Positions 55,420-64,000 of a DNA stretch of 64,000 bases are shown here, piece by piece (position 1 is the first letter of the stretch; the number at the start of each line of letters is the position of its first letter). The notes beneath the pieces are model-generated. The model ran no database searches. It was not told the origin of the DNA and saw only the letters and a program-made list of their open reading frames with translations. Both the position numbers and the translations under genes were made by a program. The stretch lies in assembly GCA_018715495.1 (NCBI GenBank), contig DVLO01000021.1, positions 32,630-96,629 of the forward strand, in the 5' to 3' direction. The DNA comes from Candidatus Limihabitans stercoravium. GTDB taxonomy: Bacteria > Bacillota > Clostridia > Christensenellales > CAG-314.

Positions 55420-56052
55420 ATGAGCGACTACAACCGAAAACTTACACCGTCCGAACTCAAACGCAAGGAAAAGTTTGAATCGGTATGCACTGACCTTGAG
55501 CAGCAAGGATACATGAAACACGATCTTACAGTAGATGTCGTGACAGCAAGCAAGATGGCACTTGTCGTAATGTTGCCTTTTGTGGCAATTGCCGTTGCGG
55601 TGTATTTTATCGCAGTGGGAAAACAAGGGTTGAATTTTCAATTTGTGGATTTGCTGTGGTTTTTACTAGCAACCGTTGTGAGTGTGGTACTGCATGAACT
55701 GTTACACGGAGTGACTTGGGCAATGTTTTCACGCAGTTTTCGTCCAATTTCCTTTGGAGTGATATGGAGTGCACTTACACCTTATTGTACGTGCAGTAAA
55801 CCTCTAAAAAAGTGGCAGTACATTGTGGGTGCGCTTGTTCCTACAATTGTGTTGGGGGTAGGTTTGACTGTGCTCTCTGTCTTGACAGCGAAAATGTGGA
55901 TTGTATTACTCAATGTCACAATGATCATCGGCGGTGGCGGTGACTTCTACATGGTTTTGAAGATGTTGAAGTGCAAGTTTGACGGCGAAGTCCTTTACTA
56001 CGATCATCCCTACGAATGCGGAGTGGTGGCGTTTGTTAGAAATAAGCAGTAG
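55420..56052 (+). CDS. Membrane zincin-like metallopeptidase (DUF3267-type)
   Basis: HELLHG motif within a 4-5 TM protein. About 210 aa. Confidence 0.65.
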   Translation: MSDYNRKLTPSELKRKEKFESVCTDLEQQGYMKHDLTVDVVTASKMALVVMLPFVAIAVAVYFIAVGKQGLNFQFVDLLWFLLATVVSVVLHELLHGVTWAMFSRSFRPISFGVIWSALTPYCTCSKPLKKWQYIVGALVPTIVLGVGLTVLSVLTAKMWIVLLNVTMIIGGGGDFYMVLKMLKCKFDGEVLYYDHPYECGVVAFVRNKQ

Positions 56053-56143
56053 TTTTGTGACGCAGTAACAACTGTTTATGTACAATCTTGACAGGGAATG
56101 TTCACTGTGCTACATTGATAAAAAATTACCAAGGAGATTTAAT

Positions 56144-56593
56144 ATGTTAGAATTAGGTCAGAAAGCACCTTTGTTTACATTGCCCGATCAGGACGGCAAC
56201 ACATTTTCTTTGCAGGACCACTTGGACAAGAAGATCGTCCTTTACTTCTATCCCAAGGACAACACATCGGGTTGCACCAAGGAAGCGCAACAGTTCAATG
56301 AACTAAAAGAGAAGTTTGATGATAAAGACACAATGATTGTAGGTATCAGTAAGGACAGCGTAGCGTCTCACCGCAGGTTTGCCGACAAGTTCAACCTCAA
56401 TTTTACTCTTCTTGCCGACGTTGACAGACAGGCAATCGAACAGTATGGAGTATGGCAGGAAAAGAAACTGTACGGCAAACCTTACATGGGTGTAGTTCGT
56501 ACAACTTTTGTCATTGACAAGGGAGTAATTGTCAATATCTACAACAATGTAAAGGTGGAAGGTCATGCACAGGAAGTGCTGTGCCAACTGTAA
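56144..56593 (+). CDS. bcp: Thiol peroxidase / peroxiredoxin Bcp
   Basis: ATG 56144 after AAGGAG. APLFTLPDQDGNTFSL and FYPKDNTSGCTKEA (peroxidatic Cys). Confidence 0.9.
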   Translation: MLELGQKAPLFTLPDQDGNTFSLQDHLDKKIVLYFYPKDNTSGCTKEAQQFNELKEKFDDKDTMIVGISKDSVASHRRFADKFNLNFTLLADVDRQAIEQYGVWQEKKLYGKPYMGVVRTTFVIDKGVIVNIYNNVKVEGHAQEVLCQL

Positions 56594-56650
56594 TTCGGAC
56601 TCAACCAGTAAAAAAATTCGGTTACGGTTATGTAAAAGAGTAATTCACAA

Positions 56651-56685
56651 AAAAAAGAGATTGACGTTTTGTCAATCTCTTTTTT
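56651..56685. terminator. Bidirectional terminator
   Basis: AAAAAAGAGATTGAC-GTTT-TGTCAATCTCTTTTTT. Confidence 0.85.
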
Positions 56686-56686
56686 G

Positions 56687-56830
56687 TTAGGAAAGATATG
56701 CTATGTCGCCACCGCAGTCACAAACGTAACTTTGTTTTTCGGCACACGTGGGACAAATTTTTGAACGGCATTTAGTACAAATGCAGTAGTTGTTTTGATC
56801 TATTTTTCCTTTGCATTGCGGACAATCCAT
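56687..56830 (-). CDS. Small Cys-rich zinc-ribbon protein
   Basis: MDCPQCKGK...CTKCRSKICPTCAEK..CDCGG has several CxxC pairs. ATG 56830 after AAAGGAG. Short, so uncertain. Confidence 0.45.
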   Translation of the reverse strand: MDCPQCKGKIDQNNYCICTKCRSKICPTCAEKQSYVCDCGGDIAYLS

Positions 56831-56948
56831 GGCTTTGTTGCTCCTTTTGTAAGATTGCTGTAATTGTTGACGCAAAAATGAAATTCAAAACGTCTCACTT
56901 GTTTTGTTTTACGTTTTTGTGCATGTATAATGTTGTCGGAGGTGTTTT

Positions 56949-57320
56949 ATGACAGTATTCAATGCAGTCTGGCAACAGGACAGACATTTGGTTTTCAAGC
57001 AGTGTGATGTGGTGTTGAATCAGGGCGAAGCGTACAGTTCGGGAGTTTGTATTGCTATGTCGGAGGAATTTAAGGACTTTTGCGTAAAGTTGCTGTTTCG
57101 ACGTTCGGACGGAAAAACGTTGTACACCAAGCCGTTGAAGGTCTTCAAACGTGGCAACAGGTGTTTTGTATGGTATATGTTGGGGGGATGGCTGTTGCAA
57201 CACAGTGGTTCTCTGTTCGTGCAGATTGTTGCAACACGAAATCGCAAGGTGGTCAAGAGTGTTTACAGTTACAATGCGTCGTTGTACGTCAATCCGTCCA
57301 TTGATAGAAAAAGTGCATGA
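56949..57320 (+). CDS. Hypothetical protein
   Basis: Strong RBS GGAGGTG 4 nt before the ATG. Co-directional with dut. I recognise no family. The competing antisense ORF 56895..57203 lacks an RBS. Confidence 0.5.
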   Translation: MTVFNAVWQQDRHLVFKQCDVVLNQGEAYSSGVCIAMSEEFKDFCVKLLFRRSDGKTLYTKPLKVFKRGNRCFVWYMLGGWLLQHSGSLFVQIVATRNRKVVKSVYSYNASLYVNPSIDRKSA

Positions 57321-57392
57321 CGTTGCGGTTTTTGCGTGAAAACCCTTGATTTTTTCACCCGTTGTGGTAACATTGTAGTATAGATTTTTGAG

Positions 57393-57884
57393 GTGCGTAT
57401 GAAGGCAAGATTTTCTAAAGTATCACAACAACAGTATCTCAATGCACGCAATTGTGGCAGTGCTTTGACGGAGTACAATGAAGTCAAGTTGCCCTGTCGT
57501 GCAACAAGATGTTCGGCAGGCTACGACTTTTTTGCGCCATTTGATTTTACGTTGCAGTGTGGACAATCCATTGTAGTGCCTACTGCAATGCGTTGTGTCA
57601 TGCCCGATGACTGGGTGTTGTTGATTTTCCCACGTAGCGGATTGGGATTCAAGTACAGATTGCGTCTTGACAATACAGTAGGTGTGATTGATGCCGATTA
57701 CAGCCTGAGTGACAACGAAGGTCACATCTTTATCAAGTTGACTAACGAAGGTGACAAGACTTTGACGGTGACGAAAGGTACGGCTTTTGCACAAGGGGTA
57801 TTTGTAGTGTACGGAACAACGGAAGATGACAATGTGACAGACGTACGCACGGGCGGATTGGGAAGTACCGACAAGAAACAGTGA
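57393..57884 (+). CDS. dut: dUTP diphosphatase (trimeric dUTPase family)
   Basis: RATRCSAGYDFFAP, FPRSGLGFKY, NTVGVIDADY and C-terminal RTGGLGSTD motifs. Confidence 0.9.
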   Translation: MRMKARFSKVSQQQYLNARNCGSALTEYNEVKLPCRATRCSAGYDFFAPFDFTLQCGQSIVVPTAMRCVMPDDWVLLIFPRSGLGFKYRLRLDNTVGVIDADYSLSDNEGHIFIKLTNEGDKTLTVTKGTAFAQGVFVVYGTTEDDNVTDVRTGGLGSTDKKQ

Positions 57885-57977
57885 TGTGTTTGTCTGGTAG
57901 TGCACGTTTGTTTAGCGTTGACAGTGAAACGGTAAAGTACGTTTTAACAATTTTGTTGCAAAAGTAATCAAATACAA

Positions 57978-58006
57978 TTGACTATTTTTCAATTTTTTGG
58001 TATCAT
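57978..58006 (+). promoter_or_regulatory. Sigma-70 promoter of tRNA-Ser
   Basis: TTGACT, 17-nt spacer, TATCAT. Confidence 0.65.
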
Positions 58007-58026
58007 ATTTGGGCAACAAAATAGAT

Positions 58027-58115
58027 GGAGAGATGGTCGAGCGGTTTAAGGCACACGCTTGGAAAGCGTGCGAGGTTAACAGCCTCCGCAGGTTCAAATC
58101 CTGTTCTCTCCGCCA
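58027..58115 (+). tRNA. tRNA-Ser (GGA), class II with long variable arm
   Basis: GGAGAGATGGTCGAGCGGTTTAAGGC... Anticodon arm CACGC-TTGGAAA-GCGTG. Variable arm GAGGTTAACAGCCTC. T arm GCAGGTTCAAATCCTGT. Discriminator G, encoded CCA. Confidence 0.9.
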
Positions 58116-58124
58116 TGGATGTGG

Positions 58125-58309
58125 CTCGCTTGTAGTCGCAACAAAAAGAAAGACACCAATCGGTGTCTTTTTCTTTTTATTGCTCCGTATTGCTTCGCCA
58201 CATCATGGCTCCGAGAACAGTTGATTGAAATGATGTGACGCTCAAGCAACACGTTGCTTTCGCTAAGCCGTCGCAACAAGTTGCTCCTTACAAATCCTGT
58301 TCTCTCCGC
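58125..58309 (+). repeat. tRNA-Ser-linked repeat unit A, copy 1 (185 bp), ending in the tRNA-Ser 3' end
   Basis: Near-identical to 58398..58582. Contains a terminator hairpin (58141-58178), GAAATGATGTGACG, an AAGCAACACGTTGCTT hairpin and GTCGCAACAAGTTGCTCCTT. The last part, CAAATCCTGTTCTCTCCGCCA, equals tRNA nt 58095-58115. Confidence 0.9.
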
Positions 58310-58326
58310 CAGTGTTAGCACACGGC

Positions 58327-58397
58327 GACTAGGATAAAACTTGGTTGCCGTGTTTTTATTTTGCCTCAACTTATACCTAGCACCCGTACGGCAGTAC
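58327..58397 (+). repeat. Repeat unit B, copy 1
   Basis: ACTAGGATAAAACTTGGTTGCCGTGTTTTTATTTTGCCTCAACTTATACCTAGCACCCGTACGGCAGTAC. A diverged second copy lies at 58651..58720. Contains a GCCGTG-T-run terminator-like hairpin. Confidence 0.75.
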
Positions 58398-58582
58398 CTC
58401 GCTTGTAGTCGCAACAAAAAGAAAGACACCAATCGGTGTCTTTTTCTTTTTATTGCTCCGTATTGCTTCGCCACATCATGGCTCCGAGAACAGTCCGTTG
58501 AAATGATGTGACGCTCAAGCAACACGTTGCTTTCGCTAAGCCGTCGCAACAAGCTGCTCCTTACAAATCCTGTTCTCTCCGC
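58398..58582 (+). repeat. tRNA-Ser-linked repeat unit A, copy 2 (185 bp)
   Basis: Differs from copy 1 at only a few positions by eye (CAGTTGATTG vs CAGTCCGTTG; AAGTTGCT vs AAGCTGCT). Ends with CAAATCCTGTTCTCTCCGC. Repeat period 273 bp. Confidence 0.9.
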
Positions 58583-58650
58583 TCCGATGTTGCACTTTTA
58601 TTTTGTACTTGATTGTAAGTTTCACATGGGCCCCTACGGCAGTAGCGGCT

Positions 58651-58720
58651 ACTAGGGTAAAATCTGGCTGCCGTGTTTTTGTTTTACCTCAATTTATACC
58701 TAATGCCCGTACGGCAGTAC
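58651..58720 (+). repeat. Repeat unit B, copy 2
   Basis: ACTAGGGTAAAATCTGGCTGCCGTGTTTTTGTTTTACCTCAATTTATACCTAATGCCCGTACGGCAGTAC. Confidence 0.75.
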
Positions 58721-58759
58721 TGTAACGGAAAGGGAAGCACAGTAGTGTTTCCCTTTTCC

Positions 58760-58933
58760 ATTTCTTTCGTGGTAGTCGCTTGTCGTTTTTGCTCCTAGAA
58801 CATTCAGTTTAAATTATGTGGCGGTACTGCGTACGGCAACTATTGATTACAATGTATTGCGGACGCAAAACCTAATCCCTGTGGAACAGCGCTATTTCGT
58901 CGCTACGCTCCTTACAAATCCTGTTCTACACGT
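58760..58933 (+). repeat. Degenerate third A-type unit ending in a decayed tRNA-Ser 3' fragment
   Basis: Retains TAGTCGC, TTTTTGCTCC, AATTATGTGGCGGTACTGCGTACGGC (compare GAAATGATGTGACGGTACTGCGTACGGC after tRNA-Val) and GCTCCTTACAAATCCTGTTCT. Confidence 0.6.
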
Positions 58934-59131
58934 CAGTACTAGCGTTCAGCAAACAACGGTAAGAGTTTTTCATAAATCCAGTATGAATTTTATTTGGTGT
59001 AAATTTAATAGCGCTTTGTTGTGATAAAGTTACATTTTGTGTTTTAAATTCAGTGTTGTCTTTAGAATATTTTTAAAATATGAAAATGATGTTAAATTCT
59101 AGGTTGCAAACGGGAAGTTAGCAATCTATTC

Positions 59132-59160
59132 TTGACATTGCTAAAGATTTGTGTTATCAT
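59132..59160 (+). promoter_or_regulatory. Sigma-70 promoter of the retron operon
   Basis: TTGACA (59132-59137), 17-nt spacer, TATCAT (59155-59160). Confidence 0.7.
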
Positions 59161-59166
59161 ACAATT

Positions 59167-59396
59167 AATAACGCATAGGCAGGTTGCACTCTCGCAAGGT
59201 CTGCTTTGCAGATGGACATCTTTTGATGTAGTTTAAGTGGGAATAATAGAGTTTCCACGTGATCCGATAAGCTTCAGTAAAAGCGAGAGGTTTATCGTGT
59301 AGACTTTTGGTATTATAGTTCAAGCCTTAGCATTGACAGCTGAATTGTTATTAGAGTGAATTAAGCGAGAGGCTCCATTCTGGAGACACTAATAAC
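59167..59396 (+). ncRNA. Candidate retron non-coding RNA (msr-msd region); boundaries approximate
   Basis: About 230 nt between the promoter and the first RBS, with no ORF. Hairpins at 59179-59204, 59237-59258, 59265-59297 and 59373-59385. AGCGAGAGG occurs twice (59282, 59364). TTAATAAC (59165) and CTAATAAC (59389) are both complementary to GTTATTAG (59347). Confidence 0.55.
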
Positions 59397-59411
59397 GAGG
59401 AGGTGAAAAAA

Positions 59412-59645
59412 ATGTCAAATGCTAACAAAACAACTGATAGCAACGATGTTGTTTTCAATGTTACAGTTAATGTAAATATTAGCGGTAACGTGATTGTAGG
59501 CAATGGCAACACCATTGTTGAAAATGGATCTCAATCCAATAAATCAATTGAGAAAAAAAGTGCGTTAGGTGAACTATTTAGCAAAGTAGGCAAGGTCATA
59601 GTCAAAATTGTTAGCATAATAACTATGTTTTTGCCGAGAGTGTAA
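59412..59645 (+). CDS. 77-aa protein with an Asn/Val-rich beta-repeat N-terminal half and a C-terminal hydrophobic tail anchor; candidate retron accessory/effector
   Basis: ATG 59412 lies 8 nt after GAGGAGG. Sequence MSNANKTTDSNDVVFNVTVNVNISGNVIVGNGNTIVENG...ALGELFSKVGKVIVKIVSIITMFLPRV. Sits between the leader and the RT on the same strand. Confidence 0.6.
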   Translation: MSNANKTTDSNDVVFNVTVNVNISGNVIVGNGNTIVENGSQSNKSIEKKSALGELFSKVGKVIVKIVSIITMFLPRV

Positions 59646-59674
59646 TACCAAAATGCATTCTAAATATTATCGGC

Positions 59675-60658
59675 GTGAGGTGGCCGTTGACTTATAAATT
59701 GTGTAGATTATATGGACTTAAATCCAAAAAAACTTTACGTGAATGGCTCGGAATCAATGATTCGGGCTTTTTTTGCAGTCAAAATATAGCGAAGAATTAC
59801 CACCCATATATTGGGAGTAAGGACAATAAAATACGTTTAATCGAGGATTCTTCTTTCAAGTTAAAACATGTGCAAAAAAAAATTCTAAAAATGTTGAAGA
59901 AACTTGATTATCCTAAATATTTATTTTCAGGCGTAAAGGGTTTATCGTATATCGACAATGCGAAGCAACATCTGGGAAAATTCTATACATATAAAATAGA
60001 TGTGTCAAAGTTTTTCCCGAATACTAGCAGAAATAAGGTGTATTCATTCTTCAAAGATTTTCTAAATACGTCTCCTGATGTGGCAAAAATACTGACGGAT
60101 TGTACAACGGTAGATTTACGTAACTATAGTAACAGTAAACACTATAACAAGATAATGCGTTTTGTAGCAATAGCGGGGATTAGACAAATTGCACATTTAT
60201 CAACAGGGGCATCAACTAGCATGTTGTTGTCTTTTTGTGTAAATCAATCAATGTTTGAAGAATTGAATGAATTTTGCAAGCAACGAGATTATATTTTTAC
60301 TGTTTATGTTGATGATGTGACAATTTCTTCAACTAAACCTATTACATATAAGGATAGACTCAAAATAATTAGAATAGTGGAAAAGTATGGACATTCTATT
60401 TCTCGAAATAAGATTAAATATTACACTTTAAGTAAAACTAAAAAAATTACGGGAGTAGTAATAAATAAAAACGGAGAGGCACGCACTCCCAATAAACTAT
60501 TAAGCAAGACACACTGTAAGATTCTTAAATTTAAAAGGGGAAATATTGGGGATGCTGAAATTAATTCACTAAAAGGGTGTATTAATGTTGCGTATCAAAT
60601 AGATGGAAAATTTATTCACTTAAAAAAACTTTTAAATTTGAAAGACAATTTAAAGTAA
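59675..60658 (+). CDS. ret: Retron-type reverse transcriptase
   Basis: Motifs in retron order: RLIEDSSFKLKHVQKKIL, IDNAKQH (NAxxH), YKIDVSKFFPN, LSTGASTS, FTVYVDDVTISS (YxDD), GHSISRNKIKYY, KKITGVVINKNG (xTG segment). About 320 aa with no maturase or endonuclease domains. The start codon is uncertain (GTG 59675, or TTG 59687/59699). Confidence 0.85.
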   Translation: MRWPLTYKLCRLYGLKSKKTLREWLGINDSGFFCSQNIAKNYHPYIGSKDNKIRLIEDSSFKLKHVQKKILKMLKKLDYPKYLFSGVKGLSYIDNAKQHLGKFYTYKIDVSKFFPNTSRNKVYSFFKDFLNTSPDVAKILTDCTTVDLRNYSNSKHYNKIMRFVAIAGIRQIAHLSTGASTSMLLSFCVNQSMFEELNEFCKQRDYIFTVYVDDVTISSTKPITYKDRLKIIRIVEKYGHSISRNKIKYYTLSKTKKITGVVINKNGEARTPNKLLSKTHCKILKFKRGNIGDAEINSLKGCINVAYQIDGKFIHLKKLLNLKDNLK

Positions 60659-60760
60659 TAAAACAACCTATTAAATATGATATTTTAGACAATCAACGTG
60701 ATGTGTTGAGTGATATTGTTTAGGTTAGATTACAAAAGTTTTAAGGAATTTCAAGTAAGC

Positions 60761-60792
60761 AAAAAGGTGACCATTGATAGTGTCACCTTTTT
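60761..60792. terminator. Bidirectional terminator between the RT and the XRE gene
   Basis: AAAAAGGTGAC-CATTGATAG-TGTCACCTTTTT. Confidence 0.8.
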
Positions 60793-60804
60793 ACAATTAT
60801 TGAA

Positions 60805-61038
60805 CTAGTCTGTTACTTCGTTGAAGATGGGATCATCGAAAAATTCCTTTAATGACATGTCCATCGTTGATGCGAATTGGTAGACTAAGTCCAACATGAT
60901 TTTCTTTTGTCCGTTGTGCAGTACTTGTGAAACTGTCGATGGGGCAATCCCGCCGTTTTTGGTAAAGTAATTAGCATTTAAATTTTTTTCTTTCATCAAT
61001 TTTTCCAGTCTTATAACAACTGCTTGAAACAATGTCAT
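60805..61038 (-). CDS. XRE-family HTH transcriptional regulator (Cro/CI-like)
   Basis: LEKLMKEKNLNANYFTKNGGIAPSTVSQVLHNGQKKIMLDLVYQFASTMDMSLKEFF. Start is ATG 61038 or GTG 61044. Confidence 0.8.
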   Translation of the reverse strand: MTLFQAVVIRLEKLMKEKNLNANYFTKNGGIAPSTVSQVLHNGQKKIMLDLVYQFASTMDMSLKEFFDDPIFNEVTD

Positions 61039-61051
61039 GTGCACCCTCGTG

Positions 61052-61168
61052 TTCTATGTATAGAATATTTTTTAAGGTAATTATATGCAAGAGTAAACAT
61101 TTTTAACTTCTATGTATAGAAACACTTGCTTAAAACCTGAAACAGTGCTACTATTTCTATATATAGAA
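61052..61168. promoter_or_regulatory. Three copies of a 14-bp palindromic operator in the XRE/SLOG divergent intergenic region
   Basis: TTCTATGTATAGAA at 61052-61065 and 61108-61121; TTCTATATATAGAA at 61155-61168. Half-sites TTCTAT/ATAGAA. Confidence 0.7.
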
Positions 61169-61181
61169 ATATGAGGTTGTC

Positions 61182-61652
61182 ATGAAAACGGCATTTATCG
61201 GGCACAGACTTGTTTTGCAAAATGACATCTATACTAAACTGTATAAAATTACAGAACAGTATATTAGGAATGGATGTGAATATTTTACGTTGGGCACTCA
61301 CGGTGAATTTGATGAAATTGCATTGAGGGTGTTGAGAAACTTAAAAGACAAATACAATTTAACAATAGAGGTTGTGTTGACAAGTTTGCATAAATTAAAA
61401 CCGCTTGTAAGTGTAGACGAAGTTTGGGGTACGGAAAATTACTTTAAATATGGGGATGTAAATACAATCATTTACGATATTGAAGAAAAACATTACAAAC
61501 AAAGAATAATATCCAGCAATAGACAAATGCTGGATACTTGCGATTCGGTTATATGCTATGTCGATACTGACAGAAAGAAAAGTGGAGCAAATAAAGCACT
61601 TGGTTATGCAAAGAAAAAGGGTTTGAAAATTACCAATATTTATAGCAAGTAA
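61182..61652 (+). CDS. SLOG-superfamily protein of the DUF1273 / YpsA-YoqJ type
   Basis: MKTAFIGHR..., TLGTHGEFDEIALRVLRNLKDKYNLTIEVVL, and C-terminal RQMLDTCDSVICYVDTDRKKSGANKALGYAKKKGLKI. Pattern matches my recollection of B. subtilis YpsA. Confidence 0.65.
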   Translation: MKTAFIGHRLVLQNDIYTKLYKITEQYIRNGCEYFTLGTHGEFDEIALRVLRNLKDKYNLTIEVVLTSLHKLKPLVSVDEVWGTENYFKYGDVNTIIYDIEEKHYKQRIISSNRQMLDTCDSVICYVDTDRKKSGANKALGYAKKKGLKITNIYSK

Positions 61653-61749
61653 TTAGGTCAATTAATTTAATTGAATGTATTTGAAGATTGATATTGTAGA
61701 AATGTCAGATTGCTTTAAAATATTATTTGCTTGTAAAGTGTTTGCTACA

Positions 61750-61778
61750 TTGACAATTTTTTAAAATTAATGTATAGT
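61750..61778 (+). promoter_or_regulatory. Sigma-70 promoter of sRNA copy 1
   Basis: TTGACA, 17-nt spacer, TATAGT. Confidence 0.7.
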
Positions 61779-61784
61779 GATTGT

Positions 61785-61929
61785 GCCCTGGTGTGTTCGA
61801 AGAACCAAAGTTGTGGCAAGATTGCGTACAACCGAGCGAAGTAGTTAATAGGGCTGAAATTGATTCACCGTAGAGTGATGGGCTGTGAGGCTTCGCAACC
61901 GTCTGTACTTTTTGTGCAGGCGGTTTTTT
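61785..61929 (+). ncRNA. Unclassified structured small RNA, copy 1 (~145 nt, promoter to terminator)
   Basis: Begins about 7 nt after the -10 element. Ends in the CCGTCTGTAC-TTTT-TGTGCAGGCGG hairpin plus T6. Internal stems GTTGT..ACAAC and GCGAAG..CTTCGC. No credible ORF. Confidence 0.6.
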
Positions 61930-62007
61930 ATTGCCTTTTGTTTCGTGCCGTCTGCACAATCCACGCAGCCGATACAAGATATCTTGTAGGATTTTTCTTT
62001 TTCTGCA

Positions 62008-62036
62008 TTGACAACCCTTCTGAATTATTGTATATT
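62008..62036 (+). promoter_or_regulatory. Sigma-70 promoter of sRNA copy 2
   Basis: TTGACA, 17-nt spacer, TATATT. Confidence 0.7.
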
Positions 62037-62042
62037 GATTGT

Positions 62043-62190
62043 GCCTCGGTGGGTAATCTATAACCAAAGTTGCGGCAGGGATTGCGTGCAACCGAGCGAA
62101 GTAGTGGATGAGGCTGAAATTGATTCACCGTAGAGTGATGGGCTGTGAGGCTTCGCAACCGTCTGTACTTTTTGTACAGGCGGTTTTTTT
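62043..62190 (+). ncRNA. Unclassified structured small RNA, copy 2 (~148 nt)
   Basis: The 3' ~95 nt are almost identical to copy 1. The 5' half has diverged but keeps its pairing (GTTGC..GCAAC replaces GTTGT..ACAAC). Terminator GTACAGGCGG plus T7. Confidence 0.6.
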
Positions 62191-62256
62191 GCAAAGTTGG
62201 CGTATGCACGCACGCCGTTGCACGGTTGAGTGTAAGGTAAACAGCCCGAAACGCCG

Positions 62257-62973
62257 TTACTCTATGTGAAGGTACAGTTCCACAAGTTTTCCGGAAATTT
62301 TGGCGTCTTTCAGCACCTTTTCCGTTATCGTTTCCCCCTTTTTAATCATTGTTTCCCCCTGAAAGTTCACTATCGTTTTGTCCACTCTTTTGTGAAGCAA
62401 AAAATCAAAGTTGCCGTATCTTCGCCTTACGGTTCTGTTTGAAATTGCAACATTTTGCGTTGACGGTGCAACGTTTTTTGTAACCGTCAACTGTTGCGGT
62501 GTCTGTTGCTCTTTTTCGACTTTCTGCTTTTGCGTGGCAACAACCTGCTTTTTCCACAAACTTTTCACCGACGGCGTTTTAATTACTATCGCATCCTTTC
62601 CCACGCTTAAAACAACCCCTGCGGTAAAAATTCTTTCCCCCGAGTAAATGCGTGTAAGAGCAAGAGAATTTGAAAAATCGGCGTCTGTCAGATTACCGCA
62701 AAAATTGCCTGCCGTGTCAAAAATTTGTTTACCCGTGTGCAACTTCCCGAAACGTTTTGTCTTCAATTCTTCGGAAATGCCCGCAGGCTGTTCCACAACG
62801 GAAACAACTTGTATTTGTGCGGCTTTTTTCTTTCTTTGCAGGTGTATTTTCACCTTCGCCATTTCGCCTATGTCCGCCACACATGTGCGCAGTGCGTTGT
62901 CGAAAAAAACGTCAGGCACAACTGTTCCCCCTGCAGTGCAGTCAAACAGGCGCAGTTCCGTCAGTTTTATCAT
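62257..62973 (-). CDS. Hypothetical protein (238 aa)
   Basis: ATG 62973 lies 4-5 nt after GGAGG. The longer 314-aa ORF in the track (to 63201) runs through the promoter/RBS of the divergent SPFH gene. I recognise no family with confidence. Confidence 0.55.
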   Translation of the reverse strand: MIKLTELRLFDCTAGGTVVPDVFFDNALRTCVADIGEMAKVKIHLQRKKKAAQIQVVSVVEQPAGISEELKTKRFGKLHTGKQIFDTAGNFCGNLTDADFSNSLALTRIYSGERIFTAGVVLSVGKDAIVIKTPSVKSLWKKQVVATQKQKVEKEQQTPQQLTVTKNVAPSTQNVAISNRTVRRRYGNFDFLLHKRVDKTIVNFQGETMIKKGETITEKVLKDAKISGKLVELYLHIE

Positions 62974-63087
62974 ATCTTCCTCCAAGCAATAAATTTTTGA
63001 AAGATTATTCCCAAAAATGCGTTTATAGTGTATAATATGTAAAACAACTGTGTTTTTTACAAAAAAAACAGGTAAAGGAGATAAAAT

Positions 63088-64000
63088 ATGGGTTGGTTCA
63101 AATCGCAAATGTGGAAAGTGTTGGAGTGGAAGGACGAAAGTCAGGACACAATGGTGCATCGCTTCGACATGCAAGGCAAAGAAATAATGAGCGGTTCGCA
63201 ATTAACCGTCAGAGAGTCGCAGGCAGGCGTGTTTGTGCATCAGGGCAAAATCGCCGACGTTTTCGGTCCCGGTCAGCACAAACTTACAACACGCAACCTG
63301 CCCATTCTTTCGGCAATAGGCAGTATCTGGTATCAGGGGGAAAGCCGTTTCAAAGCGGAGTTGTACTTTGTCAACACCAAGCAGTTTGTGGACTGCAAGT
63401 GGGGCACCAACAATCCCATCACCATGCGTGACAAGGAATTCGGTGCCGTGCGTGTGCGTGCTTTCGGCAATTACTCTTTCAGAGTCAACGACCCTGCGGA
63501 ATTTTTGCGGGAAGTGTTTGGCACCAACGGCAAATTCGGCGTGCAGGACATCGAAAGCAATCTCAAAAGCATTCTTGTTTCGCAAATGAGCGACACCATT
63601 GCCGAAAGCGGCATTTCCGCTTTGGACATGGCAATGAACTACCAGGAATTCGGCAACATGATACGTGACAACGCCCAAGCCAAATTTGACGCCATAGGTT
63701 TGGAACTGACGGACTTCAACATCATCAACATCAGTTTGCCCGAAGCGGTGGAAAAGGCAATAGACGAACGTGCAAGTTTGGGAATACTTGCCGACCAGAT
63801 GGGCACCTACACGCAAAAGAAGGCGGCGGACGCTCTCGGCGATGCGGCGAAAAACCCCGGTTCTATGGGTACTTTCATGGGTATCGGTTTGGGAGCGCAG
63901 GCAGGCGGTATTTTGGGGACGGCATTCGGCAGTGCGCAAAATGCCCAAAACAAGCCCAAGGACAGTAAATTCTGCCCCGAATGCGGTGCCAAAATCAGCG
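63088..64000 (+). CDS. ydjI: SPFH/band-7-like protein of the YdjI (virion-core-protein-like) type with C-terminal zinc ribbon; 3'-truncated by the window edge
   Basis: Translated by hand: ATG 63088 after AAAGGAG, open to nt 64000. MGWFKSQMWKVLEWKDESQDTMVHRFDMQGKEIMSGSQLTVRESQAGVFVHQGKIADVFGPGQHKLTTRNLPIL...KFCPECGAKIS is collinear with my recollection of B. subtilis YdjI. Not in the ORF track because it has no stop codon. Confidence 0.8.
   Translation, partial: MGWFKSQMWKVLEWKDESQDTMVHRFDMQGKEIMSGSQLTVRESQAGVFVHQGKIADVFGPGQHKLTTRNLPILSAIGSIWYQGESRFKAELYFVNTKQFVDCKWGTNNPITMRDKEFGAVRVRAFGNYSFRVNDPAEFLREVFGTNGKFGVQDIESNLKSILVSQMSDTIAESGISALDMAMNYQEFGNMIRDNAQAKFDAIGLELTDFNIINISLPEAVEKAIDERASLGILADQMGTYTQKKAADALGDAAKNPGSMGTFMGIGLGAQAGGILGTAFGSAQNAQNKPKDSKFCPECGAKIS

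Follow-up and report, generated by a model that had tools for sequence, protein, structure and literature searches.

The DNA analysed here (the window) is a stretch of 64,000 nt from Candidatus Limihabitans stercoravium (GCA_018715495.1, contig DVLO01000021.1, 32,630-96,629 of the forward strand). It contains an operon in which a strong promoter is followed by a ~245-nt structured leader, a 77-aa ORF, whose product we call the small protein (SP), a ~325-aa retron reverse transcriptase (RT) and a bidirectional terminator. Its genes and signals, numbered from the first letter of the window, are the following:

59132..59160, forward strand: sigma-70-type promoter (TTGACA at 59132-59137, 17-nt spacer with TG, TATCAT at 59155-59160)
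59398..59403, forward strand: Shine-Dalgarno sequence (SD) of SP, AGGAGG, read from the sequence
59412..59645, forward strand: SP, predicted toxic effector, 77 aa, starting with ATG
59675..60658, forward strand: retron RT, Type VI clade, 327 aa from GTG 59675 or 323 aa from TTG 59687
60761..60792, bidirectional: intrinsic terminator, AAAAAGGTGAC, 10-nt spacer, GTCACCTTTTT

The two ORFs, the consensus promoter (TTGACA-17-TATCAT) and the near-perfect RBS before the small ORF had all been called in the original prediction, and each of them stands. The promoter matches the consensus at 11 of 12 positions and carries a TG extension, and its TTGACA aligns at the equal place in all four homologous loci that reach that far (L086, L088, L089 and L001). 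Block conservation among the aligned homologous loci starts just 3' of the -10, and transcription probably starts near 59167. In almost every related locus an AGGAGG hexamer stands ahead of the small ORF. The terminator, a perfect 11-nt inverted repeat between A and T runs, closes both the retron operon and a convergent HTH gene; it is absent from the consensus-scan list because its loop is longer than 8 nt.

An NCBI MAG protein of Candidatus Limihabitans stercoravium matches the RT at 100% identity, and the start of the RT is probably TTG 59687, which gives 323 aa as in that identical protein and is preceded by a conserved GAGGTG. Its best PADLOC model is RT_VI (1.1e-69, 233 bits), the next model reaching 111 bits; RT_II-A scores 106 bits and RT_V 73.5 bits, while RT_IV falls outside the 25 best models, that is, below 59 bits. 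On RT_VI, canonical Type VI RTs that bear an HTH score 276-287 bits and other HTH-less relatives 224-273 bits. The best PADLOC, NCBIfam and PDB matches are retron RTs throughout, including 15 of 15 PDB sequence matches, and a fold search with the AlphaFold2 (AF2) model (pLDDT 93.4) returned retron RTs as its top 18 entries (TM 0.61-0.78). The earlier assignment to the retrons is thus confirmed over group II intron, DGR, Abi or DRT enzymes, as is the description of a ~320-aa protein devoid of maturase or endonuclease domains (323-327 aa, with RVT_1 as the only Pfam match). The motif set on which that assignment was built falls on invariant or near-invariant columns among 22 homologues (N95, H99, D109, F113, G178, S182, Y211, D213, D214, T259 and G260), the catalytic YVDD and all other RT motifs being intact. 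By HMM scores and an unrooted NJ tree, the RT belongs to the Type VI clade. The RT clades follow the SP families, which has also been reported for Type VI. An insertion of 25-28 aa (~aa 146-173 in the window RT) is clade-specific, as seen in six aligned loci representing five SP families.

The leader and the SP gene together have the features of a hybrid RNA. The elements that we could delineate, all on the forward strand, are listed here:

59167..59411, forward strand: predicted 5' non-coding part of the hybrid RNA, comprising an msr-msd-like arm and the riboregulator, from conservation, folding and compensatory changes
59168..59176, forward strand: 5' arm of long-range helix H1, ATAACGCAT, pairing with 59560-59568 inside the SP coding sequence
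59189..59195, forward strand: anti-repeat CTCTCGC, complementary to both direct-repeat copies
59237..59258, forward strand: variable hairpin, differing in sequence and length between loci, a stem-loop being predicted in the window
59264..59270, forward strand: IR1-like element, 7 bp formed in the window
59281..59290, forward strand: direct repeat copy 1, AAGCGAGAGG, an exact 10-nt repeat in the msd-like arm
59327..59425, forward strand: riboregulator hairpin around the SD and start codon of SP (-28.1 kcal/mol, z = -3.65, 0 of 200 shuffles as good)
59363..59372, forward strand: direct repeat copy 2, AAGCGAGAGG, in the riboregulator interior
59560..59568, forward strand: 3' arm of helix H1, GTGCGTTAG, in the invariant KKSALGEL codons of SP
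59667..59673, forward strand: IR2-like arm TTATCGG, in the SP-RT spacer

The leader (59167..59411) is conserved at the nucleotide level above intergenic expectation across 11 loci. It had been described as hairpin-rich, and it does fold beyond chance: z against shuffles is -5.6 for 59160-59680, -3.7 for 59167-59300 and -3.7 for 59325-59427, with 0 shuffles as good in each case. Base pairs with a compensatory change number 21, where shuffles give 9.1 +/- 2.1 and slid controls 2-6, the structures being scored on the same alignments from which they were derived and the changes within the window's own SP family coming mainly from one divergent sub-lineage (L093/L001). For H1, 98% of cells are paired, and the L093/L001 lineage shows compensatory changes at three of the nine pairs; in 11 loci, pairing of helices H7-H9 is 97.7-100%; the equivalent anti-SD/SD stem covaries in SP family A (CG:8/UA:8 and UA:8/CG:7); and helix 13, which lies inside the coding sequence, has compensatory pairs at five of eight positions. 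L087, L090 and L093/L001 retain the pairing of 59264..59270 and show some compensatory changes in it, so that this element is moderately supported. A scan of 56000-64000 with Rfam at E<=1 returned a tRNA and chance matches only, none of them in the leader.

The direct repeats are a recurrent property of these upstream regions. Both copies switch jointly to TGCAAGGGGG in L093/L001, and the longest word shared between the two search zones measures at least 8 nt in 71 of 86 distinct upstream regions (shuffled mean ~6.6). Relative to the start of SP, the usual positions of the copies in the loci listed are about -125 and -52, and the repeat word varies with the SP family. In 64 of the 86 regions a complementary stretch of 6 nt or more lies 5' of the repeats (a raw count from a longest-match screen, with no shuffle baseline), and this anti-repeat changes along with the repeat sequence between loci. 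In the RNAalifold structure the partner of the anti-repeat at 59189..59195 is repeat 1, and this helix (helix 3) includes one compensatory pair. The columns of the variable hairpin are the least conserved of the leader alignment, and we infer that this hairpin is a candidate core of the reverse-transcription template (msd).

The anti-repeat has competing predicted partners, namely repeat 1, repeat 2 or 59635-59645; as an a1/a2-like pair, we rejected the MFE helix between 59184-59194 and the SP stop region (59635-59645), which is not kept in L090, L093 and L001 and in place of which RNAalifold favours the anti-repeat/repeat 1 and 59168-59176/59560-59568 pairings.

Type VI retrons have been shown to use as toxin a small protein whose gene lies inside the ncRNA transcript (bioRxiv 10.1101/2025.10.22.683967; 10.64898/2026.04.27.721009). 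Such SPs measure ~55-80 aa, have a hydrophobic C-terminal core and lie between the ncRNA and the RT, the named SP clusters being mutually unrelated in sequence. In the window SP the N-terminal half is rich in N, V, I and G, and the C-terminus is a cationic amphipathic helix. The hydropathy of SP peaks at a KD of 1.67 over 19 residues, a borderline segment with a hydrophobic moment of 0.59; the closest relatives reach 1.18-1.29, under the usual TM range, and sister SP families have an unmistakable TM helix (KD 3.2). The protein had been called tail-anchored, which is too strong for an amphipathic helix of this kind, and the beta-repeat head that it was credited with was not reproduced: the N-terminal half has a beta-prone look, and AlphaFold2, run with 19 close homologues, left it unstructured (pLDDT ~45; 52 for the whole protein) and modelled only a helix at 51-72. 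SP has no match in Pfam, NCBIfam or PADLOC, and its 31 database homologues carry neither a Pfam domain nor a name. In the 10 closest loci its identity is 55-87%. The dN/dS of SP is 0.20-0.39, which indicates purifying selection. Comparison of family profiles gave a 76% probability for C against B (E 2e-5), but only 4% for C against A, and a common origin of all SP families is therefore not demonstrated.

Could the small ORF be translated and yet not encode a toxin? Its product might serve as a leader peptide, a regulatory peptide or an accessory factor, in which case the RT or its cDNA would act via a host target or an unlinked effector. Such a role would agree with the sequence of SP, which has no detectable similarity to published SP clusters and is unlike the experimentally tested SPs, and with its borderline hydrophobic segment and unpredictable structure. 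We nevertheless consider it unlikely, given that the position, size, strong SD, RNA embedding and hydrophobic/amphipathic C-terminus of SP match those of tested SP toxins, that the sister families have a clear TM helix, that SP is under purifying selection and that the RT has no other conserved neighbour.

The SP-RT layout without an HTH is common to 87 related loci with a readable upstream region, mostly from Clostridia and Bacilli. It spans different species and metagenome samples, plus 8 viral contigs. A scan of JGI metagenomes with a single RT yielded only three distant loci, and the close relatives were collected individually. In the 87 HTH-less loci that allowed a small ORF to be called, this ORF sits at the SP position and measures 59-93 aa, and in most loci it lies 18-66 nt 5' of the RT. 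These loci have intact ORFs, a strong SD and conserved RNA elements. SP is the sole conserved neighbour of the RT, other recurrent ORFs being frames that overlap SP or the leader. Conservation of the small ORF and leader together with the RT had been proposed as a check, and it was seen in every related locus with the upstream region present.

The Type VI HTH, by which the type is defined, is a Cro/C1-type protein of 91-110 aa (cluster 2_1, HTH_VI), encoded immediately upstream of the RT or overlapping it in ~78% of entries (Mestre et al. 2020). In the window the space between SP and RT is 29 nt to GTG 59675, or 41 nt to the likelier TTG 59687, and holds no HTH gene. The PADLOC HTH_VI model, whose matches to canonical HTHs reach 4e-35 and 4e-26, found nothing at the locus. 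A further HMM, derived from canonical Type VI HTHs, found none in any HTH-less locus and, across the 64-kb window, nothing above generic-HTH level and no HTH_VI-like ORF. Judged from these sequences, the absence of the HTH is a lineage-wide trait and not a local accident. Our search of the literature on HTH-less or Firmicutes Type VI retrons found nothing specific.

Just downstream of the operon are two genes that went unmentioned when SP was originally described as the sole partner of the RT, a description that is right within the operon:

60805..61044, reverse strand: Cro/C1 HTH, 79 aa, Pfam HTH_26 1.5e-4, convergent, 147 nt past the RT stop
61182..61652: weak SLOG/NDT-like gene, 156 aa, YpsA SLOG 5.4e-5 and Nuc_deoxyrib_tr 0.006, both Pfam matches under the curated cut-offs

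These two genes are divergently paired and share an intergenic region with three palindromic operators. The first of them raises the question of whether this is a Type VI retron with the usual three components, its HTH having moved and the 79-aa protein serving as repressor or antitoxin in trans. Its type and its closeness to the RT would fit, and so would a 31%-identical HTH located 2.6 kb from the RT in L089. However, it lacks the HTH_VI match of its canonical counterparts and reaches just 13 bits on the canonical-HTH HMM, and we rejected it as a relocated HTH_VI; its divergent pairing with a partner of its own around the three operators fits an independent module; nine of the 10 closest loci do not have it; and around the other 78 genome-collection loci no recurring HTH cluster was seen. 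A moved HTH is thus very unlikely.

That the 156-aa SLOG/nucleoside-deoxyribosyltransferase-like protein is the effector of a Type II-like retron is highly improbable: in spite of its weak Pfam matches and a 30%-identical protein near the RT in L089, it has no PADLOC retron-effector match, RT_II-A gives the RT 106 bits where RT_VI gives 233, the bidirectional terminator and the convergent gene stand between it and the RT, leaving it outside the operon, and it is absent from the other close loci. The original statement that the operon contains no classical effector holds, and none is a conserved neighbour in related loci either. We give equally little credence to a decaying, non-functional Type VI remnant left after HTH loss, which the setting of the locus might suggest (an islet without integrase, among degenerate tRNA-Ser att-like repeats), against the intact HTH-less layout in the related loci and viral contigs, the intact YVDD and other RT motifs and the purifying selection on SP.

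The locus is, in our view, probably a two-gene Type VI-family retron that naturally lacks the Type VI HTH. The original suggestion of an undescribed retron subtype or effector survives in part, since the RT is of Type VI (RT_VI 1.1e-69) and the concept of a small-protein toxin is known, but the HTH-less layout differs.

Features of the hybrid RNAs of the two characterised Type VI retrons are present at the locus, namely a sequestered RBS and AUG, direct repeats and a long-range inverted repeat. In Retron-Vpa2 the HTH represses reverse transcription, mutation of the HTH is toxic (Zhang et al., bioRxiv 10.1101/2025.10.22.683967) and the toxin is released by msDNA-dependent translational derepression (10.1101/2025.10.22.683967). 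The window locus shares with Retron-Vpa2 ('Large' lineage) the order of promoter, structured ncRNA, small hydrophobic-tailed protein and RT, the RT being of the RT_VI family in both; an SP lying inside a structured hybrid RNA (hyRNA), with RBS and AUG in stem-loops; short conserved direct repeats, one in an msd-like arm and one in a riboregulator; and long-range inverted repeats between the 5' arm and the transcript's 3' part. It differs from Vpa2, which has an HTH between SP and RT, an SP of 55 aa and a repeat of 7 nt, in having no HTH, an SP of 77 aa with an N/V/I/G-rich N-terminal half, a repeat of 10 nt, the 25-28-aa insertion in the RT and a Gram-positive gut anaerobe as host.

Retron-Sen3 has been described as a constitutive HTH-SP toxin-antitoxin pair under post-translational control, in which loss of the HTH is not tolerated (Garcia-Rodriguez et al., 10.64898/2026.04.27.721009). 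Common to Retron-Sen3 (cl2075 lineage) and the window are an ncRNA located within ~280 nt of where SP starts, in which an internal stem-loop varies and the RBS is sequestered, IR1-IR2-type pairing flanking SP (here 59264..59270 and 59667..59673), RNA-structural covariation within the SP coding sequence, an SP of ~77-79 aa whose C-terminus is an amphipathic helix (hydrophobic moment ~0.6) and an RT phylogeny that follows the SP cluster. The variable hairpin of the window is analogous both to the msd stem of Vpa2 and to the variable SL3 of Sen3. In contrast, the antitoxin protein that is indispensable in Sen3 (the HTH) is not encoded here, and whereas an all-helical fold is predicted for Sen3 SPs, the window SP has an N-terminal half that looks beta-prone and is unstructured in AF2.

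By homology and by analogy with Vpa2, the locus could work as follows. The single promoter would give a ~500-nt hybrid RNA whose 5' third is msr-msd-like and whose remainder encodes SP, the RT being cotranscribed downstream. At rest SP would remain untranslated because its SD and AUG are buried in the conserved hairpin, as structure and covariation suggest, while the RT, by homology with other retron RTs, would copy a template in the leader into a short single-stranded DNA. Upon phage infection this DNA may accumulate, and the DNA copy of repeat 1 could anneal to repeat 2 in the riboregulator; alternatively, once the template is removed, the anti-repeat upstream could become available for pairing with repeat 2. 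In both cases the hairpin would open and SP could be made, and its amphipathic/hydrophobic C-terminal helix would then damage the cell, resulting in abortive infection. Because there is no HTH, restraint of both RT and SP would have to rest on RNA structure alone, to which the RT, perhaps via its clade-specific insertion, might speculatively add. Since neither characterised Type VI retron can do without the HTH, it is uncertain whether the mechanism of one or the other carries over directly. We put forward as a tentative possibility that the Clostridia/Bacilli SP-RT lineage is a self-contained retron in which an RNA-only switch (anti-repeat, repeat 1 and repeat 2) replaces the HTH, with a possible contribution of the RT insertion, and in which the N/V/I/G-rich 'VVxNIxGNNNxV' head of its SPs may define a new effector family.

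The Vpa2 and Sen3 studies (2025-2026) differ on the mechanism of Type VI retrons and find the HTH indispensable in both. A large natural lineage that has the RT, the hybrid RNA, the repeats and SP without the HTH makes it testable whether an RNA switch suffices for silencing and firing the toxin. If it does, this would be the simplest natural retron defence unit, and a natural experiment separating RNA-level from protein-level control in Type VI immunity. Should automated annotation of defence systems ask for both RT_VI and HTH_VI before calling Type VI, such loci would be missed and the abundance of Type VI in gut Firmicutes would be underestimated. A ~1.6 kb two-gene operon with a predicted RNA-gated toxin also offers an attractive minimal chassis for engineering retrons in Gram-positive hosts.

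Two further systems resemble the locus in part. According to the literature Types IV, V and VI share RT clade 3, with Type IV as the sister RT clade. Type IV retrons (e.g. Retron-Eco6/Ec48, an RT plus a two-TM membrane effector) share with the window a membrane-type effector without enzymatic domain, but the window RT scores below 59 bits on RT_IV against 233 on RT_VI, and its 77-aa partner has at most one hydrophobic helix and is encoded upstream of the RT, inside the RNA. The second comparison is mechanistic and implies no homology. In type I toxin-antitoxin systems and engineered toehold riboregulators an RNA structure over the SD and AUG blocks translation, which a complementary nucleic acid or refolding releases. 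Like these, the locus would have a small hydrophobic/amphipathic toxin gated by RNA structure; unlike in type I toxin-antitoxin systems, the proposed trigger is reverse-transcribed DNA that a dedicated RT makes in cis, and not an antisense RNA.

The retron operon consists of two genes, encoding a 77-aa small protein (SP) and, next downstream, the reverse transcriptase (RT). Its main features, the two ORFs being taken from the ORF list and the sequence, are:

59132-59160, plus strand: promoter, TTGACA-17-TATCAT, 11/12 consensus positions, with a TG extension
59412..59645, plus strand: SP ORF, 77 aa, ATG start, AGGAGG at 59398-59403
59675..60658, plus strand: RT ORF
60761-60792, bidirectional: terminator, a perfect 11-nt inverted repeat with A and T runs at its flanks, ending the operon and also serving the convergent gene

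The promoter of the original prediction holds, and its TTGACA is aligned at the same position in all homologous loci whose sequence extends that far (4/4). So does the structured leader followed by a small ORF with a strong ribosome-binding site, region 59160-59680 folding far better than shuffled sequences (z = -5.6). The most likely start of the RT is TTG 59687, because its identical NCBI counterpart, from a MAG of Candidatus Limihabitans stercoravium (class Clostridia), is 323 aa long and this codon follows a conserved GAGGTG.

The retron-RT motifs claimed for this protein are real and fall on invariant columns of the homologue alignment. A PADLOC run returned a retron RT, with RT_VI as the best model (1.1e-69, 233 bits) followed by RT_III-A (111 bits) and, lower, RT_V (73.5 bits); RT_IV was absent from the top 25 models. 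Pfam gave RVT_1 alone and NCBIfam gave retron families alone, every NCBIfam match lying under its curated cut-off. Searching the PDB with a profile of 22 RT homologues retrieved retron RTs only, and the 18 best fold matches of the AlphaFold2 model (pLDDT 93.4) were all retron RTs, with group II intron, DGR and DRT enzymes ranking lower. The window RT belongs to the Type VI retron clade.

Type VI was defined by a Cro/C1 HTH protein (cluster 2_1), with small auxiliary proteins in some members (Mestre et al. 2020). Two preprints show that SP is the toxin of these retrons (bioRxiv 10.1101/2025.10.22.683967; 10.64898/2026.04.27.721009), and therefore the small hydrophobic-tailed partner of the window RT, which had been put forward as a candidate undescribed effector, represents an effector principle already established for Type VI, not a new one. 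Retron-Vpa2 has its msr-msd and SP coding sequence joined in a single 'hybrid RNA', with stem-loops holding the SP RBS and AUG. Its HTH keeps reverse transcription repressed, and msDNA induced by phage relieves the repression of SP translation; the mediators proposed for this are short conserved direct repeats, of which one copy lies in the msd and the other in the riboregulator (bioRxiv 10.1101/2025.10.22.683967). Retron-Sen3 makes SP constitutively, with the HTH neutralising it; its ncRNA contains an internal stem-loop that is variable, sequesters the RBS and pairs IR1 with IR2 around SP, and there is covariation within the SP coding sequence (bioRxiv 10.64898/2026.04.27.721009). Losing the HTH makes Vpa2 toxic and is not tolerated by Sen3. 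Both retrons have this protein, whereas the window operon does not.

The SP-RT spacer, 29 nt to GTG and 41 nt to TTG, leaves no room for an HTH gene. The PADLOC HTH_VI model, which matches the HTHs of canonical (HTH-bearing) relatives at 4e-35 and 4e-26, has no match at the window locus. An HMM built from three canonical HTHs found matches in the five canonical loci only and none in any HTH-less locus; over the whole 64-kb window it gave generic-level matches only (18 and 13 bits). Relatives with or without the HTH all have RT_VI as their top PADLOC model, and SP-HTH-RT or HTH-RT layouts are confined to loci with about 30-35% RT identity (Sphingomonas, a JGI metagenome, a Ligilactobacillus plasmid). 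Deep-branching relatives can also be HTH-less, as in a Salmonella-associated contig, an Enterococcus plasmid and locus L081. The first of these (L094, OR850936.1, 'Salmonella phage S.Kent 1-2-1' contig, 1504-2721) encodes a proteobacterial RT_VI-type RT (263 bits) with a highly basic 75-aa SP directly upstream and the HTH absent; HTH-less SP-RT units are therefore not confined to Firmicutes.

The RT itself carries an additional segment:

60110-60193 (RT aa ~146-173), plus strand: RT insertion, 25-28 aa between the 'LTxxTT' segment and the 'xTGxxxS' motif

This insertion is common to 6/6 aligned Firmicutes HTH-less RTs, drawn from five SP families, and is missing in 3/3 aligned HTH-bearing Type VI RTs as well as in L081 and L094; the RT of another relative, L095, has a short insert at the site. 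AlphaFold2 models it at high confidence as strand-helix-helix-strand. It could be a functional substitute for the HTH.

Relatives were taken from a scan of one genome per GTDB species, which returned 228, of which the best 80 were kept. Among these 80, 77/78 Firmicutes-type loci, with RT identities of 36-49%, carry an ORF of 59-79 aa with a strong SD that ends 18-66 nt ahead of the RT; the other, L072, has no small-ORF candidate upstream of its RT. A 76-78-aa SP is present in 9/9 individually fetched closer relatives (58-73% RT identity), a tenth locus being truncated at the RT, and their flanking genes vary (helicase, Eco57I-type enzyme, ABC transporter, methylase, integrases). When all neighbouring ORFs were clustered, the small ORF was the only conserved neighbour, the remaining recurrent clusters being frames overlapping SP or the conserved leader. 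Small ORF and leader are thus conserved with the RT, and no classical effector emerges as the conserved neighbour.

Across the closer loci SP identity is 55-87% and dN/dS 0.20-0.39; its 31 database homologues are unnamed and have no domain. RT clades follow SP sequence families in an NJ tree, and the Type VI literature likewise reports RT phylogeny tracking SP cluster (bioRxiv 10.64898/2026.04.27.721009). Homology between families B and C is probable (hhalign 76%, E 2e-5); between C and A hhalign could not demonstrate it. The window SP had been described as tail-anchored, which is not established, because its C-terminal helix is cationic and amphipathic (KD maximum 1.67, hydrophobic moment 0.59) and hydrophobicity is lower in its nearest relatives; a true TM segment (KD 3.2) occurs in family A. 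As for the proposed 'beta-repeat head', the N-terminal half ('VVxNVxVNxNISGNVxVGNGNTIV') does look beta-prone, but AlphaFold2 does not model it.

Some relatives have further genes after the RT. In the two closest (73% RT identity; L084, 3980-5329, and L085, 3425-4774) the RT stop is overlapped by a 64-aa ORF, and next comes a 336-aa protein that matches nothing in Pfam; these may be an extra lineage-specific partner. In L089 (3110-4791) the gene directly after the RT encodes an RNase III-like protein that has a Dicer-dimerisation-like match and two regions of dsRBD type, and the next one a Thg1-like (tRNA-His guanylyltransferase family) protein, an unusual pair beside a retron.

From the leader to the SP-RT spacer we located the following RNA elements:

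59168-59176 with 59560-59568 (inside the SP coding sequence), plus strand: long-range helix, 3/9 pairs compensatory
59189-59195, plus strand: anti-repeat CTCTCGC, complementary to both repeat copies
59264-59270 with 59667-59673 (past the SP stop), plus strand: IR1-IR2-like pair, with weaker support than the other elements
59281 and 59363, plus strand: 10-nt direct repeat AAGCGAGAGG, copy 2 within the riboregulator
59327-59425, plus strand: riboregulator hairpin burying SD and AUG (-28.1 kcal/mol, z = -3.65)

These are hallmarks published for the Type VI hybrid RNA: the sequestered SD and AUG and the direct repeat with copy 2 in the riboregulator resemble Retron-Vpa2, and the sequestered RBS, the less well supported IR1-IR2-like pair and covariation in the SP coding sequence resemble Retron-Sen3. 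Scored with RNAalifold on an 11-locus alignment (A2), 21 of 121 predicted pairs were compensatory, compared with 9.1 +/- 2.1 after column shuffling and 2-6 for slid controls; helix 13, inside the SP coding sequence, has 5/8. In a separate alignment of 20 family-A loci, 44/79 pairs showed compensatory change, including the anti-SD/SD stem and a long-range helix reaching just past the SP stop.

A word of at least 8 nt is shared between the two search zones in 71 of 86 distinct upstream regions (longest shared word in shuffles about 6.6 on average). In the listed loci the copies mostly fall around -125 and -52 relative to the SP start. Its sequence varies by SP family (TGGGAAGTC, GTGCAGGAG, ATATGGGGCA and others), and in one lineage of relatives (L093/L001) both copies are altered in concert to TGCAAGGGGG. 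Complementary segments of 6 nt or more occur upstream of the repeats in 64/86 regions, a count without a shuffled control. Overlapping repeat 1, the 15-mer AGCGAGAGGTTTATC at 59282-59296 is identical to nt 13-27 of a 170-nt Ec86 (Retron-Eco1, Type II-A) msr-msd query, itself found at 100% identity in 48 E. coli genomes. These nucleotides presumably include the branching-G context, and the match may reflect the priming G (G59283), or it may be chance; SP families other than that of the window carry different repeats here.

Taken at the level of sequence comparison, these data show one operon with a Type VI-clade retron RT whose catalytic motifs are intact, a conserved SP under selection within a conserved structured RNA, a predicted sequestration of the SP SD and AUG, repeat and anti-repeat elements that appear to co-evolve, and the lack of the HTH throughout the lineage. 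If it works as its homologues Vpa2 and Sen3 do, the RT would copy part of the leader into ssDNA; once built up on infection, this DNA would open the riboregulator, whether through annealing to repeat 2 or through release of the anti-repeat, and SP would then be made, its C-terminal helix killing or arresting the cell. More speculatively, the restraint that the HTH provides elsewhere may here fall to RNA structure together with the RT insertion.

The suggestion of an undescribed retron subtype stands in part: the locus belongs to the Type VI RT/SP/hybrid-RNA family, yet it fails the original defining feature, the HTH. It is therefore classed as a Type VI-like retron of two genes that lacks the HTH, widespread among Clostridia and Bacilli of the gut, of which we found no description in the literature searched. 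Its interest would rise if RNA-only control were demonstrated.

The operon lies in a low-GC islet (~59000-62000; 31-36% GC vs 43-47% in the flanks) adjoining tRNA-Ser(gga) at 58027-58115 and beginning right past the last of three partial tRNA copies:

58283, 58556 and 58907: degenerate copies of the tRNA-Ser(gga) 3' end, following the tRNA

This pattern is typical of integrated islands; the islet contains no integrase. Eight relatives sit on IMG/VR viral contigs. A 185-nt tandem duplication (58125-58309 / 58398-58582) also lies beside the tRNA and, together with the 3'-end copies, looks like the scars of repeated integration. At the right-hand edge of the islet there is a 110-nt direct repeat (61820-61929 and 62080-62189, 95% identical).

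Downstream of the retron lies a divergent gene pair with a shared intergenic region of 137 bp:

60805..61044, minus strand: Cro/C1 HTH gene, 79 aa, convergent with the retron operon
61052, 61108 and 61155: three palindromes, TTCTAT(G/A)TATAGAA, between the divergent genes
61182..61652, plus strand: weak YpsA-SLOG / nucleoside-deoxyribosyltransferase-like gene, 156 aa

The pair is missing from the close loci other than L089, where a pair with about 30% identity lies 2.6 kb from the RT, and no such recurrent cluster was seen among more distant loci. We treat it as a module independent of the retron, and it may be a toxin-antitoxin or defence module moving in the same islands.
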